Of a stretch of DNA of 64,000 bases, positions 2,580 through 8,430 are shown in pieces. The translations under genes were made by a program, and so were the position numbers. The stretch covers positions 8,013-72,012 of the forward strand of contig JBLYPX010000001.1 in NCBI GenBank assembly GCA_048538235.1. The letters are read 5' to 3'. Position 1 is the first letter of the stretch. Each line of letters begins with the position of its first letter. This DNA comes from Candidatus Komeilibacteria bacterium (GTDB taxonomy: Bacteria; Patescibacteriota; Patescibacteriia; UBA1558). Below the pieces are notes generated by a model. The model was not told the DNA's origin and did no database searches. It saw only the letters and a program-made list of their open reading frames with translations.

Positions 2580-2612
2580 CTACTTATTTACAAAAGATTA
2601 GATATTAGTATA

Positions 2613-3002
2613 ATGTTTTTATCTATGGAAAATAGTAAACACAATATAATAGTATATTTATTACTAACAGGACTTATTGTCTCTTCTGTTTTAGGTTGTG
2701 TTTTCTTTGCGCAGAACATGATGATGACAGATCATCACGGGGATAGTATTGCTAAGTGTTGCGAGGGAGGTATTTTAGCAGATATAGCTAGTCATAGACC
2801 AGCCTCAATTTTAGTAAATATTAGTCTCAGTATATTTTTATTTGCTTTAGCTATTACTTCAATAATTAAACAGAATATATTCACTGATGAAGGTTTGTAT
2901 AAAACATATATAAGAGTGAAAGAAAGAAGTGGGGGTTTTAATTATTTTAATAATTACATTTTACTATTTAGTAAAGGTATTCTACATACAAAAGTTTATT
3001 AA
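2613..3002 (+). CDS. membrane protein with MMMTDHHGD / CCEGG motif (possible metal ligand residues)
   Basis: 129 aa, 2 TM segments, Met/His/Cys cluster; lies immediately upstream of the copper-handling cluster. Confidence 0.3.
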   Translation: MFLSMENSKHNIIVYLLLTGLIVSSVLGCVFFAQNMMMTDHHGDSIAKCCEGGILADIASHRPASILVNISLSIFLFALAITSIIKQNIFTDEGLYKTYIRVKERSGGFNYFNNYILLFSKGILHTKVY

Positions 3003-3077
3003 TTCCGTATAGATCCTACGTATAATATTTAATATTCAGTAGGATTTTTTAATTATTAAAAAATTAAAATTAACTAT

Positions 3078-3830
3078 ATGGAAGAAAAAAAGAAAAAAAT
3101 ACCTCGTTCTAAGATATCTTTTGGTTTAGGAATTCTTAGTGGTGTGGGTATTATGTTCATGATTGGATTTTTTGTCTTACTAGCTATGTTCCTTAGTGGG
3201 AATAATAGTCTGGGCACTGGTAATAAGGTTGCAGGAAATAATATACCGAGTGTTAATAGTGGTCAGGCGCCCACAAAAGACATTACAGTAAGTCCGGTCA
3301 GTAAAGAAGATTGGATGAGAGGAGATAAAAAGGCACCAATTAGTATTATTGAATTCTCAGACACTGAATGTCCTTTCTGTAAGAGATTTCATACAACTAT
3401 GCAACAAATAGTTGAAGAATATGACGGAGAGGTAAATTGGATTTATCGTCATTTTCCTTTGACGTCATTGCATTCAAAAGCAGCACGTGAGGCAGAAGCA
3501 ACAGAATGTGCTGGAGAATTAGCCGGTAATGATGGTTTTTGGAAATACATAGATAGATTATTTGCTGTAACACCGTCTAATAATGGGCTTAGTGATAGTG
3601 AGCTATACAATATTGCAGATTATGTTGGTTTAAACAGTTCTGACTTTAGAACTTGTTTAGAATCTGGCAAGTATGCAAGTAAAGTTAGAGATCATGCGAA
3701 TCAAGCGCAAGCAGCTGGTGGATCAGGTACGCCCTACAGCATAATAATAGCTGGAGATAAACAAGCGCCATTGTCTGGAGCCTTGCCAATAGAACAGCTC
3801 AGAACAATAATAGATTCTTTACTACAATAA
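3078..3830 (+). CDS. DsbA-family thiol:disulfide oxidoreductase (thioredoxin fold, CPFC active site), membrane anchored
   Basis: N-terminal TM segment, SDTECPFCKRFH active-site motif, DsbA-like length. Confidence 0.7.
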   Translation: MEEKKKKIPRSKISFGLGILSGVGIMFMIGFFVLLAMFLSGNNSLGTGNKVAGNNIPSVNSGQAPTKDITVSPVSKEDWMRGDKKAPISIIEFSDTECPFCKRFHTTMQQIVEEYDGEVNWIYRHFPLTSLHSKAAREAEATECAGELAGNDGFWKYIDRLFAVTPSNNGLSDSELYNIADYVGLNSSDFRTCLESGKYASKVRDHANQAQAAGGSGTPYSIIIAGDKQAPLSGALPIEQLRTIIDSLLQ

Positions 3831-3831
3831 T

Positions 3832-4290
3832 ATGGGAATAAATAAATATTATTGGCTAGCTTTAATACCTGTAGTTGCTTTTGTTATTGGTTTCACTATT
3901 TTGCCAGACGAAATTAGTACTAACGGTAAAAAGGTAACAGTGTATAAATCTCCTACATGCGGTTGTTGTGTTAACTACATTTCGATTCTTAAACAAGCTG
4001 GTTATGAGGTTGAGACAGTTAAGACAGAAAATATGGCAGCTATCAAAGATAAGTATGGAATTAGTGAAGATATGGAAAGTTGTCATACTTCTGTATTTGA
4101 AGATTATGTAGTAGAAGGACACGTGCCTTTGTCTGTAGTAGATAAATTACTAACAGAAAAACCAGATATTAGAGGTATAGCCTTGCCAGACATGCCAGCT
4201 GGATCTCCTGGTATGGCTGGATTTAAAAGAGAACCATTTAAAATATATGCTTTGTCAGATAATGACACTAGTATATACATTGAAGAATAA
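3832..4290 (+). CDS. DUF411 family periplasmic metal-binding protein (CopG-like in some nomenclatures)
   Basis: Signal/TM segment then TCGCC motif and conserved Met/His residues typical of DUF411 proteins found in copper-resistance loci. Confidence 0.55.
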   Translation: MGINKYYWLALIPVVAFVIGFTILPDEISTNGKKVTVYKSPTCGCCVNYISILKQAGYEVETVKTENMAAIKDKYGISEDMESCHTSVFEDYVVEGHVPLSVVDKLLTEKPDIRGIALPDMPAGSPGMAGFKREPFKIYALSDNDTSIYIEE

Positions 4291-4304
4291 TTAAATAATA
4301 AAAT

Positions 4305-4835
4305 ATGGAAAAAGATAAAGATAGTATAAAATTGTTAAACATTGTTGGAATTGTATTAATTGTAACAATATTGTTTAGCGGACCATTATTTGTTCTTGGT
4401 TTAAGCATGTTCCATTTCTCACCAAGTTATCATATGGGTATGATGCACGGTGGTTATAGTGATGAGCATGACCATCATTCAATGATGTCTATGGAAGATA
4501 GTCGTTTAGCATACATTGAACACGGAGATGCTATTTCTGACGAACTAAGAGATGAAGGTAATTATGAGTGTTGTTTATTAAATCCTTGTACTTACTGTAT
4601 TGAAAAGACACCTGGTCATGGCGAAGGAGCAAGTTGCCACTGTTTAGATGACATAATGAATGGAGAACATCCTTGTGGTGAGTGTATGGGCGAGATATTA
4701 GAAGGTCATGGTAATAAACATGCGGCTATGTATTTTGCCTCGGCTATAGCAGATGAATTAGGGGTTGAATATTTAGACATGCTTAAGGAGATTATTGCTA
4801 AGAAATATAACATTTCTGTAGACGAACAATTCTAA
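4305..4835 (+). CDS. His/Met/Cys-rich putative metal (copper)-binding protein, membrane anchored
   Basis: TM anchor then [47 protein letters not shown] motifs. Confidence 0.45.
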
Positions 4836-4900
4836 AATTCTTTGGACTTTACGGGGTTTTGTTGTACCATAGAGGTATAATCTATTTTAGTTTTAATCAT

Positions 4901-7066
4901 ATGGATAAGAGAATAAGCTTAAGTATAAAAGGGATGAGCTGTGCTAGTTGTGTGAATCACATTGAGACAGATTTGAATAAACTAGCAGGTGTTAAAAGTG
5001 TTAGTGTAAATCTTGTGTTAGAGCAAGCAGTGGTAGTTTTTAATGACGCTAAACTTTCTCAAGAAGATATCATTAATACAGTGGCTCAGTCTGGTTACCA
5101 AGCGGAAGAAATAAAAGACAGTCATTCATCTGGTCACTACGATCATTCAATGCATGTAGCTGGTGAGGCAGACAAGACAGTGTCAAAAAGGTTAAAGAGA
5201 GTAATTGGGGCAGGGGTTTTAACCCTTGCTATACTTGCTCTATCTTTTGTGTTTCAAATTGTGAACGGCCACTTATTGATGTTTGTTTTATCTGTTGGAG
5301 TTATATATTTTGGTTGGGAGTTTTTTAAGGTTGGTATTCCATCATTATTACGAGGCCGTCCAGACATGGACACTTTAGTTTCTTTGGGAGTAACAGCTTC
5401 ATTTCTTTATTCAACATATTCAATATTCTTTACAGATTTAAAGCAAGAGTATTTTATGGATGTTGGTATTATTATTACCTTTATTTTACTAGGTAGGTAT
5501 TTAGAAGCTAGGGCTAAAGGAAAAGCATCAGAGGCTATTAAAAAGCTATTACAATTAGCCGCTAAAGTTGCTCATAAAATAATTGGTTCTAATAAAACAC
5601 AAGACGTGGATATTGATCAAATAAAAGTAGGAGATAAGTTATTAGTAAAGCCGGGTGAGAAAATTCCAGTTGATGGTGTTGTTATTGAGGGTAACGCAGT
5701 AGTTGATGAGTCAATGATTACGGGTGAAAGCATCCCTGTAGACAAAGCAATTGGGGATGAGGTAACAGGCGCTACTTTAAATGGCAACACAGCATTCTCA
5801 ATGGAAGTGAGTAAGGTAGGAGATAATACTGTTTTGTCACGAATTATTAAAATGGTACAAGAGGCACAGGTTTCTAAAGCGCCAATACAAAAATTAGTAG
5901 ATAAGGTTTCTAGTTATTTTGTTTGGGGAGTTATATTAATTGCTTTAATAACCTTTATTATTTGGTTTTCAATAATTGGTGAACTTTCTGGACCTTTAAT
6001 ATATATGGTTACAGTTTTAATTATAGCTTGTCCTTGTGCTTTGGGTCTGGCCACACCAATATCTATTGTTGTTGGCTCTGGTCAAGGAGCCGAGAGTGGG
6101 ATACTTGTAAAAAACTCAGCAGCTTTAGAGAAAATACATAAAATAACAACCGTGGTGTTAGATAAAACAGGTACGCTAACAAAAGGACGTCCAGAAGTAG
6201 TGGATATTTTTGGAGACGAAGATGTGTTAGAGATTGCTTATGCTATTGAATTAAATTCTGAGCATCCTTTAGCCCACGCTGTAATTCAAAAAGGTGAACA
6301 AGAAAAGACTAAAGAAGAAGAGGTGAGTGATTTTAAAGCTATTTCTGGTAGAGGAATAAAAGCAAGGGTTAGAGGTGTGAATTATCTACTTGGTAATAGT
6401 GTTTTATTGGAAGATAACAATATTATTATATCCAAAGAAGATAAAGATAAGGTTGAAAGTGTGGAGTCAAAAGGCAATACAGTATTATTGTTGGCAGATG
6501 ATAAAAAATATAAAGGGTATATATCTGTGGCAGATACTGTAAAAGAAAGTTCACAATCAGCAATTAAACAGTTAAAGAAAAAAGGCATTCAAACTATTAT
6601 GTTAACTGGAGACAACGAAGCAACTGCAAAAGCAATTGCTAAGAGCGTTGGTATAGATAAGGTTTTTGCAAAGTTATTACCAGAAGATAAGGTTAATAAA
6701 ATAAAAGAACTACAAAGCAAAGGTCAGTTTGTAGCTATGATTGGTGATGGTATAAATGATGCTCCAGCTTTAGCCCAAGCAGATGTTGGTATTGCTTTAG
6801 GAACAGGTACTGATGTAGCGGTTGAAGCAGGCGAAGTAGTGCTAGTTAAAGGTGATCTAATGAAGGCAGTTCAGGCTATTAAATTATCTGAAGCTACATT
6901 AAAGAATATAAAACAAAACCTATTTTGGGCTTTTATATACAATACAATTGGTATACCCATAGCTGCTCTTGGTCTTTTAAACCCAGCAATTAGTGCTGGA
7001 GCTATGGCATTTAGTAGTGTATCTGTTGTATTGAACGCATTAAGATTAAAACTCTTAAAGCTTTAG
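4901..7066 (+). CDS. copA: copper-translocating P-type ATPase
   Basis: N-terminal HMA domain [15 protein letters not shown] transmembrane motif ([10 protein letters not shown]), DKTGTLT phosphorylation site, GDGINDAP hinge. Start chosen at MDKRISL just before the HMA domain. Confidence 0.9.
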
Positions 7067-7127: not shown

Positions 7128-7292
7128 ATGGCAAAAAGAGCAACTGGTGTTGGGAAGATGAAAAGATCTACTTCTCATAAAACCGCAAAAAGACTTGAAA
7201 TAAAGAAAGCTATGCTTGAAGAGAAAGGTAAAAAGACAAAGCATAAAAAACAAAGAAGAAAAGTCGCAAAGAAAAACAATACTAAGGTATAA
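7128..7292 (+). CDS. small highly basic protein (54 aa), hypothetical
   Basis: MAKRATGVGKMKRSTSHKTAKRLEIKKAMLEEKGKKTKHKKQRRKVAKKNNTKV; immediately followed by rho-independent terminator (aagaggacgat-ggtt-atcgtcctctt + T-run) at 7293..7326. No clear SD. Confidence 0.3.
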   Translation: MAKRATGVGKMKRSTSHKTAKRLEIKKAMLEEKGKKTKHKKQRRKVAKKNNTKV

Positions 7293-7326
7293 GAAAAGAG
7301 GACGATGGTTATCGTCCTCTTTTGTT
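7293..7326 (+). terminator. rho-independent terminator hairpin
   Basis: Perfect 11 bp stem aagaggacgat/atcgtcctctt with 4 nt loop followed by TTTTGTTTGTT. Confidence 0.6.
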
Positions 7327-7332
7327 TGTTGC

Positions 7333-8430
7333 TTAAGCTGCAAGTTTGTTTTTGATCAGGGTAAGATATTCTTGCGCTTTATCCCAACCATGGGCGTGAA
7401 TACCGGTTGAACCCTTGGTTGTTTTTTCTTTCTCGAAAAGGGATTCCAAGTCGAGTTTGTTCTGGGGGTCAACTTCTTCCCAATTAATATTGATTACGCG
7501 TTTACGCCAACCAATAGTGAATGTACCGTATTCAGTCTGAACTTTATACCAGGGTGCACAGTATTCACATCGACAGTATTGATTTGGTATTGAATCAATT
7601 TGAAGGCTTGTGAACCCGGCAGCTGTGAATATATCAGTGAATTTTTCACCATATTCAAGTTCCAGCCGCTTTTCGTTACATTCATGATGATACAGGGTCC
7701 AGATATCAAAGTAGCACTCATCTCCTTCTTTGACTACATAGTCGTTTGAGATACCGTCACTTCTTCTAAGCCAGCCACTTTCATTCACTACAATATCTTT
7801 TTCCCAGTCTTGTTCCGGGTTGGGATATTTTGGTGAATTGTCGATGTAGGCATCGCTGCGGATGACCAGATCGCCACCAATGCGATAAACAGCATCTTTG
7901 ATCTCTGAAAAGTGAGCTTGGACCTCTGCCAGTGTTTTACCGACATAGTTTGTCATTGAAATTACTGTACTGTCTCGATACATAATAACATCAAAACAGC
8001 TTTCAATTGTCCACCCTGTGCCACAGTGTGGGCAGACAAGATCTTCTGGTGGAATATCACTACTACCTTGCCACCCCGTCATAGACGAGCGGCTCTTTGG
8101 CCAGTGCTCAGCACAATACTCAGCAAATTCCTTCCTGGTAAGGACATCTGGAATATTAGGCATGATAGTTTTGAGATCTAAGTCGCCCTTCATGAAGTTT
8201 CCGCAAGTGTCTAAATTCCACTTACCAAGAACGATAAATTCATTCAGTCGTTCTTTGCGCTGGTAGTAAGCTTCATGGCGGGCTTGCTCAAGAATGTTTA
8301 GCTTATTAAGGCTTGTGACGTGCTGAGCGATACCTTCCTTGGTGTCATACCAAGGTCTTCCTTCACTGTCATAATCAGGACTTTCGCCCATTGAGAATGT
8401 GTGGCTGGATTGTTGTACTATTACTCCCAT
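7333..8430 (-). CDS. hypothetical protein with two CxxC pairs (CPHCGTGW, CRCEYCAPW); visibly higher GC than neighbours
   Basis: 365 aa continuous ORF; codon usage noticeably richer in G/C than flanking genes; no recognisable family. Confidence 0.5.
   Translation of the reverse strand: MGVIVQQSSHTFSMGESPDYDSEGRPWYDTKEGIAQHVTSLNKLNILEQARHEAYYQRKERLNEFIVLGKWNLDTCGNFMKGDLDLKTIMPNIPDVLTRKEFAEYCAEHWPKSRSSMTGWQGSSDIPPEDLVCPHCGTGWTIESCFDVIMYRDSTVISMTNYVGKTLAEVQAHFSEIKDAVYRIGGDLVIRSDAYIDNSPKYPNPEQDWEKDIVVNESGWLRRSDGISNDYVVKEGDECYFDIWTLYHHECNEKRLELEYGEKFTDIFTAAGFTSLQIDSIPNQYCRCEYCAPWYKVQTEYGTFTIGWRKRVININWEEVDPQNKLDLESLFEKEKTTKGSTGIHAHGWDKAQEYLTLIKNKLAA

Follow-up and report, generated by a model that had tools for sequence, protein, structure and literature searches.

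CopG and a conserved eight-cysteine partner family in a predicted copper-handling operon of a Komeilibacteria bacterium

Several described systems place copper- or thiol-handling proteins on the outer side of the cytoplasmic membrane. CusF, PcoE, CopC/PcoC and the Met-rich loops of CueO/PcoA are extracytoplasmic Cu(I) acceptors or chaperones with Met/His-rich motifs. CcdA/DsbD transporters deliver reducing equivalents to extracytoplasmic thiol-redox domains, and in DsbD itself a CcdA-type transmembrane electron transporter is fused to periplasmic redox domains, among them a thioredoxin-like c-domain. In Salmonella, the Scs system (ScsA/B/C/D) ties Dsb-like thiol oxidoreductases to copper stress (PMC10907172). 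CopG has a thioredoxin-like fold and holds a tetranuclear copper (Cu4) cluster through a CxCC motif and Met residues, as seen in the Pseudomonas aeruginosa protein (PDB: 6WIS; Hausrath et al. 2020, via PMC7558416). It plays a role in anaerobic copper resistance, is genetically linked to copA and cus, and has been proposed to be a Cu(I) oxidizer or Cu(I)/Cu(II) oxidoreductase that hands copper to other proteins (PMC7558416); CopG, CopI and CopJ receive no mention in the Cupriavidus paper. Here we describe a five-gene locus within a 64-kb stretch of DNA (the window) from a Komeilibacteria bacterium of the Candidate Phyla Radiation (CPR), in which a gene for a DUF411 protein is directly followed by one for a small protein with eight conserved cysteines, hereafter the 8-Cys protein (Table 1). 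Judged by its genes, the locus is a predicted operon for copper export and for the handling of copper outside the cytoplasm. Systems of this general kind are known; what is new is the family of the 8-Cys partner, together with its predicted fold.

The DUF411 protein had been treated as uncharacterized in a first reading of this DNA (the original prediction), an assignment that we correct: it is CopG, the protein with the tetranuclear copper cluster solved in 6WIS. The 3832–4290 product matches DUF411 (PF04214) with an E-value of 1.4e-23 and 82.8 bits against a cut-off of 27, and it aligns with P. aeruginosa CopG over residues 35–144, the whole soluble part (E-value 4.6e-21). This full-length alignment implies a thioredoxin-like fold; the N-terminal half also gives a weak Glutaredoxin match that falls below the cut-off (2.9e-4). 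The motifs CxCC (C43-G-C45-C46), C84-H-T, E-G-H97-V-P and M121-P-x-G-S-P-G-M128 are all present, with C43, C45, C46, C84, H85, H97, M121 and M128 matching 6WIS residue for residue, and they are invariant in 91 homologues, of which 65 have an 8-Cys partner and 26 do not. From these matches, the product appears to be a membrane-anchored CopG holding all residues of the Cys-bridged Cu4 cluster site. The likeness to the P. aeruginosa protein thus lies in the CxCC, CHT, EGHVP and MPxGSPGM motifs and in the linkage to copA. The setting differs in two respects. Whereas the proteobacterial form is soluble and periplasmic, the CopG studied here is anchored by an N-terminal transmembrane (TM) helix, and its host cell has no outer membrane; moreover, an obligate-looking 8-Cys partner, not described for proteobacterial CopG, is encoded 3' of its gene.

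To define the genomic context of the 8-Cys family, we compared 80 loci encoding its members, taken from contigs of one genome per species, 43 with bacterial and 37 with archaeal labels; these labels are automatic, and some (‘Gammaproteobacteria’, ‘Methanosarcinales’) are doubtful. Neighbours were found by tblastn with the proteins of the studied locus and by unbiased clustering of neighbouring open reading frames (ORFs). A DUF411 gene lies directly 5' of the 8-Cys gene on the same strand in 72 of the 80 loci, or 72 of 77 when contig-end cuts are excluded; the eight loci lacking it comprise three contig ends and five true exceptions. The two genes are separated by a median of ~9 nt, with a 4-nt overlap in many pairs. 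The identical five-gene order of the studied locus recurs in three Komeilibacteria/Parcubacteria contigs (L064, L083 and L001) and, taken together with the DUF411/8-Cys adjacency in 72/80 loci, this recurrence puts the gene arrangement far beyond chance. Other neighbours are less constant. Of the 41 loci flanked on each side by 5 kb or more of sequence, 37 have DUF411, 20 (49%) have CopA, within 5–8 kb, and 17 (41%) have the DsbA-like protein; copA is on the same strand as the 8-Cys gene in 29 of 32 cases, and a DsbA-like homologue occurs within 8 kb in 28 of the 80 loci. CsoR-family repressor genes stand directly upstream in nine loci, most of them with the C...H...C pattern and a subset with C-H-H, and membrane-bound MarR-like regulators, for the most part archaeal, are present in 20. 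DUF302 proteins, small thioredoxins and MerT-like small membrane proteins are among the neighbours in some loci. The conserved functional unit is accordingly the DUF411 and 8-Cys pair, with DsbA, CopA and CsoR as facultative neighbours. The four-gene module of the original prediction therefore survives as a copper-handling cluster, its conserved part being reduced to this pair, and the expected co-occurrence with copA in related genomes is borne out by the counts above.

The dependence between the two proteins runs in one direction. In the reverse test, an 8-Cys gene was found in only 5 of 32 DUF411-anchored metagenome loci with downstream room, and the DUF411 genes without a partner include some that are 42–63% identical to the studied one. 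Because of this asymmetry (72/80 against 5/32), we regard the 8-Cys protein as accessory to CopG rather than the other way round, and it is very probably a dedicated copper-homeostasis partner of CopG. The pair is common to CPR bacteria and DPANN archaea, with protein identities of 40–65%, which suggests inter-domain transfer of CopG and the 8-Cys protein as a unit; over the bacterial and archaeal loci together, identities span 37–67%. A comparison aimed at CopG changes that track the presence of the partner brought out only residue 120, which adjoins the first Met ligand on its N-terminal side, and weaker differences at P41 and M68. In unpartnered CopG proteins residue 120 is Gly in 96% of cases, whereas in partnered ones it varies. 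These changes are suggestive, not decisive. Two further families were noted in the neighbourhoods. An unnamed Cys-rich family of ~150–240 aa (ISCE[YF]CCG...ACGCAHS..., with a C-terminal MVGGC; for example L008:6270–6926 and L081:2875–3318, and 25 other loci) recurs ahead of DUF411 in DPANN loci and after the DUF411–8-Cys fusion. The second family, of 76 aa and likewise with GGC at its C-terminus, is found in 13 loci.

The 8-Cys protein itself, 100% identical to NCBI ACKKL6_00100, belongs to no named family in Pfam-A, NCBIfam or the PDB as far as sequence comparison reaches: the 176-aa protein has no Pfam or NCBIfam match, and its family profile has no PDB sequence match at E-values up to 10. 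A search of 5.8 billion proteins returned 309 relatives, all annotated as ‘hypothetical’ and without Pfam domains, in CPR bacteria and DPANN archaea; a broader profile collected ~655 family members, none of them named. The family is compact, since an exhaustive hidden Markov model (HMM) scan of 1.84 billion cluster representatives gave only 102 matches. The core contains two CxxC motifs, one CC pair and one CxC pair. In the alignment of the core family, all eight cysteines, H105, H122 and H135 are invariant, as are several acidic residues, while across 140 diverse sequences that include distant relatives the eight cysteines are the sole invariant residues. An N-terminal TM segment is present in 144 of 151 members. 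Because the N-terminal tail is net positive, giving an N-in bias, and the segment after the TM helix is acidic, the Cys domain is predicted to be extracytoplasmic. In these 151 members, the linker between anchor and domain is 9.9% Met and 6.8% His, a 3–4 fold enrichment of both residues.

We modeled the domain with AlphaFold2. A first model, built from a 26-sequence alignment, was discarded because its predicted local distance difference test score (pLDDT) was 60 for the model as a whole and under 50 within the Cys core. The model from the 140-sequence alignment reached a pLDDT of 94.2 and a predicted template-modeling score (pTM) of 0.85. It shows one long helix and, at the C-terminus, a helical hairpin; the Cys-rich region contributes three short helices, and the CxxC motifs mark the start of two of these. 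A Foldseek comparison of this model with the PDB gave no fold match (best E-value 4.8, template-modeling score of at most 0.33). The fold of the 8-Cys domain is thus predicted with high confidence and, as modeled, has no PDB neighbour.

The described extracytoplasmic copper proteins CusF, PcoE, CopC/PcoC and CueO/PcoA share with the 8-Cys protein a flexible Met/His-rich segment outside the membrane, beside a Cu(I) exporter. They differ in having no conserved eight-cysteine core and no sequence or fold relationship to it. A connection to thiol-redox systems emerges from gene fusions, the most informative being those at loci without DUF411. In all five loci that truly lack DUF411 (L046, L048, L062, L077 and L078), the 8-Cys gene follows a DsbD_TM/CcdA protein, and these transporters bear a C-terminal 8-Cys domain of their own, of a distant subtype. 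The L046 case is a single 525-aa ORF in the order DsbD_TM, 8-Cys, TM, Lys-rich loop, TM and 8-Cys, and both of its 8-Cys domains are predicted to be outside by the positive-inside rule. In these five loci the 8-Cys domain therefore stands C-terminal to DsbD_TM, where DsbD has its thioredoxin-like c-domain; unlike that domain, it is not thioredoxin-like, has no Pfam match and has another predicted fold, and the studied 64-kb window contains no such transporter. The Scs system offers a parallel at the level of function, in that copper-regulated, Cu-binding envelope thiol oxidoreductases (the DsbA/C-like ScsC, the DsbD-like ScsB and the small membrane protein ScsA) link the thiol redox state of the envelope with tolerance of copper. 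The parallel goes no further than analogy: the 64-kb window has no ScsB/DsbD homologue, the DsbA-like protein of the locus is nearer to the monoderm DsbA/MdbA type, and neither the 8-Cys protein nor CopG has a counterpart in Scs.

The 8-Cys domain also occurs in other fusions and settings. The exhaustive search recovered a natural fusion of an N-terminal DUF411 domain with a C-terminal 8-Cys domain (P0142). Single-linkage clustering had also hinted at CopA/DUF411/8-Cys fusions; direct inspection found none in the 80 loci. Tandem 8-Cys duplications occur, joined by Met-rich linkers of the MMGMGGCPMMGGGMMM type. One relative is fused to a heavy-metal-binding domain (HMBD) and lies next to an RND pump, and another is fused to a PCYCGC domain. 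A distant relative is found within an operon encoding an ECF-type sigma factor, a thioredoxin-family protein and an HMA protein, and stand-alone type-2 relatives sit among CsoR, DsbA-like and DUF2318-like genes. The type-2 genes are flanked at L126:2–571 and L127:1357–1839 by ORFs that read as DUF2318-like (CxxC...CxxC...GGCNPGPI).

Given these features, we propose that the 8-Cys protein is a membrane-tethered, copper-binding thiol-redox relay serving CopG, a mechanistic reading in which we place as much belief as doubt. CopA would pump Cu(I) from the cytoplasm, and the partner, positioned outside the membrane, would collect the departing Cu(I) with its flexible Met/His-rich arm. Its core of eight cysteines and three histidines would act as a copper-binding thiol/disulfide relay that exchanges copper, reducing equivalents or both with the cluster site (CxCC) of CopG, an exchange that might either keep the CopG site reduced and loaded or carry electrons for the proposed Cu(I)/Cu(II) interconversion. 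The partner could then be reset by thiol-redox machinery, here the DsbA-like oxidoreductase, which would be co-transcribed in the operon, and in a minority of relatives a CcdA/DsbD-type transporter. Since 8-Cys domains are fused to CcdA/DsbD-type transporters, we favour such a dedicated relay over generic disulfide repair. The original prediction of a copper-buffering and disulfide-repair module thus keeps its copper function and its thiol-redox flavour, and gives up repair for a relay whose mechanism we infer.

Several points weigh against this proposal. The oxidation of Cu(I) by a disulfide would be thermodynamically uphill. CopG has no general need of an 8-Cys partner, and the raw adjacency count is inflated by shared ancestry or by transfer of the pair as a unit. 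The three histidines, conserved in the core family only, appear not to be part of the ancestral function. The eight cysteines may be placed for disulfides, for Zn or Cu sites or for CxxC redox pairs. In addition, the 64-kb window contains neither a CsoR homologue nor a CcdA/DsbD (ScsB-type) homologue.

A different role for the cysteines would turn the partner into a pure copper chaperone or sponge, with four structural disulfides made by DsbA, copper bound by the histidines, the acidic residues and the tether, and no relay; it would do no more than pass copper to or from CopG, or buffer it. The even number of invariant cysteines in an extracytoplasmic domain is the classic disulfide pattern, DsbA-like neighbours are frequent (28/80), and the Met/His-rich tether, the HMBD fusion of one relative and the invariance of H105, H122, H135 and several acidic residues in the core family would all suit a chaperone. 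Permanent disulfides are, however, hard to square with the CcdA/DsbD_TM fusions, since those transporters export reducing power; the histidines are absent from distant relatives that are still found in copper/thiol operons; and in the model both CxxC motifs sit at helix N-termini, as they do in redox-active or metal-binding sites. On this evidence we consider the pure chaperone unlikely. The same placement of the CxxC knuckles ahead of helices in the model could instead point to a scaffold resembling a zinc finger, cross-braced or treble-clef-like, in which the eight cysteines would hold two structural metals and the protein would dock or orient CopG close to CopA at the membrane, without any copper chemistry. 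Read as a motif, the C-x2-C...C-x-C...C-x2-C spacing does resemble two-metal cross-brace fingers, and the need of AlphaFold2 for a deep alignment is usual for apo metal domains. CopG of the operon already has its own membrane anchor, though, the 8-Cys domain is similar to no Pfam Zn-finger family and no PDB chain in sequence or fold, and a scaffold accounts neither for the tether rich in Met and His nor for the CcdA fusions or the settings beside CsoR and CopA, all of which makes it improbable.

The metal itself might also be another. MerT-like small membrane proteins and DUF302 genes in some loci, the C-H-H (not C-H-C) fingerprint of a subset of the CsoR-family regulators and the chance of misassignment among P1B ATPases would agree with a module for a different thiophilic metal (Ag, Hg, Cd or Zn) or for general envelope oxidative or thiol stress, to which the copper link is incidental. 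We judge this very improbable, as the ATPase of the studied locus bears the CPC, YN and MxxSS signatures of the Cu(I) type and obtains its highest score with the Cu subfamily model, experiments have established CopG as a copper protein, and most CsoR neighbours show the C...H...C pattern. The relay serving CopG can, conversely, be extended further than we would defend with any firmness. In this speculative and rather doubtful form, the 8-Cys domain would be a new extracytoplasmic redox/copper-cluster module that wires CcdA-type transporters or DsbA to the CopG Cu4 site, supports O2-independent Cu(I)/Cu(II) interconversion or immobilization on the exterior of ultra-small CPR/DPANN anaerobes that lack multicopper oxidases and cytochromes, and has moved between the domains of life as a unit with CopG.

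The remaining components of the locus and its signals are listed in Table 1.

Table 1. Features of the copper-handling locus, in coordinates of the 64-kb window
Feature	Position	Strand	Description
Promoter-like site	2587..2614	+	TTTACA, 16-nt spacer, TATAAT (11/12 match); consensus match only
orf129	2613/2625-3002	+	2-TM membrane protein with His/CC loop
Hairpin with U-tract (U6)	3011..3053 (stem 3011-3019 / 3039-3047)	+	Terminator- or attenuator-like, in the orf129/dsbA spacer
DsbA-like oxidoreductase	3078-3830	+	250 aa, CPFC
CopG (DUF411)	3832-4290	+	152 aa, TCGCC
8-Cys protein	4305-4835	+	176 aa, His/Met/Cys-rich
8-Cys protein, predicted TM anchor	4332-4412	+	Residues ~10-36
8-Cys protein, Met/His-rich tether	4413-4502	+	Residues 37-66; 40% His+Met in 30 residues
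8-Cys protein, Cys/His core	4569-4709	+	C89 C90 C95 C98 H105 C111 C113 H122 C124 C127 H135
8-Cys protein, remaining parts			Helix between tether and core; C-terminal helical hairpin after core
CopA	4901-7066 (alternative TTG start 4859)	+	Predicted Cu(I) P1B-1 ATPase
Strong intrinsic terminator	7294..7323	+	13-bp stem; closes the cluster

All five ORFs of the original prediction were recovered in the ORF listing at their coordinates between 2613 and 7066, with the motifs ascribed to them. They are co-directional and closely set, with intergenic gaps of 75, 1, 14 and 65 nt in order, so that dsbA, copG and the 8-Cys gene have essentially no space between them; the GC content of the surrounding DNA is ~0.30–0.36. 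Searches with Pfam and NCBIfam HMMs agree with the proposed DsbA-like, DUF411 and CopA identities, and the accessory proteins are, as had been suggested, membrane-anchored through N-terminal segments with a predicted topology outside the cell. In one of the relatives with the same gene order, the Parcubacteria contig L001, a gene that looks rhodanese-like by eye (6220–6640), with a lipoprotein-type N-terminus, lies between the 8-Cys gene and copA.

The 3078–3830 product matches Thioredoxin_4 (PF13462) with an E-value of 8.3e-22 and 78.6 bits against a Pfam cut-off of 23.2, and also matches DSBA (PF01323, 1.2e-15). It carries CPFC at residues 98–101, a cis-Pro loop G-T-P that aligns with the T-P of 4n30, and an N-terminal TM anchor preceded by a Lys-rich tail, features by which it is assigned as a membrane-anchored, predicted extracytoplasmic DsbA-like thiol:disulfide oxidoreductase. 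In the PDB it matches 4n30 best (3.1e-17) and next a set of actinobacterial chains of the DsbA/MdbA type. The ScsC structures 6nen, 6mhh, 4xvw and 4gxz, hit at 1.6e-5 to 9.5e-5 over ~55 residues, come far behind all of these, and no DsbD/CcdA is encoded in the window; an identity as ScsC was accordingly set aside.

CopA scores 610.4 bits (3.5e-183) against TIGR01511, whose NCBIfam cut-off is 397, and 1.4e-194 against TIGR01525, and it contains E1-E2_ATPase, Hydrolase and one N-terminal HMA domain (PF00403, 3.6e-14). The translation shows GMSCASC, CPC in TM4, DKTGT, YN in TM5 (FIYNTIGIP) and MxxSS in TM6 (MAFSSVS). The score against the E. coli CopA equivalog model is below its cut-off (616.8 against 1316). 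The protein is thus classed by these models as a member of the Cu subfamily, not an equivalog, and is predicted to be a P1B-1 Cu(I)-exporting ATPase. Of its two possible starts, ATG 4901 is more likely than TTG 4859 because homologues align from the Met at 4901.

For the small protein encoded upstream, orf129, the original prediction described the motifs and the membrane nature correctly; the start is another matter, and the family turns out to be lineage-specific and separated from dsbA by a hairpin. Read from 2613, orf129 has 129 aa with the motifs MMMTDHHGD and CCEGG. The NCBI annotation begins it at 2625 (125 aa, P0222; ACKKL6_00085, 100% identical). Because a −10 box overlaps the ATG at 2613, NCBI starts at 2625 and homologues align only from residue 3–5 on, the start is probably at 2625 instead of 2613. 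The protein has no Pfam or NCBIfam match. A word search recovered six homologues, and the family is present in nine loci, all bacterial, on the same strand 0.8–2.3 kb upstream and always 5' of dsbA. Its members conserve a His-rich...CC loop and a C-terminal GILHPK(I/V)(Y/F) tail, the latter basic and predicted to be cytoplasmic (R-x-R-Y-G-G-F...G-I-L-H-P-K-I/V-Y). From the charge distribution, orf129 is predicted to be a 2-TM protein with its Met/His-rich CC loop outside the cell, and by its distribution it appears to be an accessory membrane protein limited to its lineage.

The −10 box in question, TATAAT at 2609–2614, belongs to the promoter-like site of Table 1. The hexamer is found 10–25 nt 5' of the orthologous orf129 start in 5/5 syntenic relatives; promoter-like sites are not enriched across the region as a whole. 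The hairpin between orf129 and dsbA has a folding energy of −9.9 kcal/mol (z −3.1), occurs at the equivalent site in six syntenic loci and shows compensatory changes in 3 of 12 pairs. It looks like a weak intrinsic signal and probably acts by leaky termination or by attenuation, so that orf129 is uncoupled from dsbA-copG-8Cys-copA. A TATAAT in its loop (3021–3026) could serve as a dsbA promoter, although the hexamer is not conserved among the relatives. The terminator at 7294–7323 is much more stable (−22.1 kcal/mol, z −6.6; 0 of 200 shuffles fold as well). A putative CsoR-type operator upstream of copA (GTACCATAGAGGTAT, GTACC-N5-GGTAT, ~4863–4877) was dropped, because no CsoR homologue was found in the window and L064 does not conserve the repeat. 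Unlike the nine related loci with a CsoR gene directly upstream, the studied locus does not read as a CsoR-regulated operon.

Beyond copA, a 54-aa ORF (7128–7292, + strand) that is extremely basic (Lys/Arg-rich) and has no Pfam match precedes the closing terminator, which is placed to serve also the convergent gene at 7333–8430 (− strand). The latter encodes 365 aa with the motifs CPHCGTGW and CRCEYCAPWY, has a GC content of 0.41–0.43 against ~0.32, and its product gave no Pfam, NCBIfam or PDB sequence match; the gene may have been horizontally acquired. On the other side, a gene fragment on the − strand runs off the start of the window (1 to ~1010, GC 0.42–0.44) and looks by eye like a radical S-adenosylmethionine enzyme (CYGVCTFC), possibly of the B12-binding type; ORFs called on the + strand in this stretch are antisense artefacts. 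Between it and orf129 lie a 70-aa 2-TM ORF (1196–1408, + strand) with CDTC...C in a loop and a weak MerT-like match, and a 204-aa, half-size transporter of the major facilitator superfamily (1474–2088, − strand) that covers profile positions 2–171 of 347 only. These two may represent a remnant or an additional metal-related gene.

CopG occurs widely and has a solved structure, and the 8-Cys family provides a testable lead to its physiological reaction and to its partners in redox or copper exchange. It is a new, unnamed partner family of ~150 aa that is tightly linked to CopG, being fused sometimes to CopG and sometimes to a CcdA-type transporter, and the gene pair is documented on both sides of the boundary between bacteria and archaea. 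To the proteomes of CPR bacteria and DPANN archaea, which contain many uncharacterized proteins, the pair adds a conserved envelope function.

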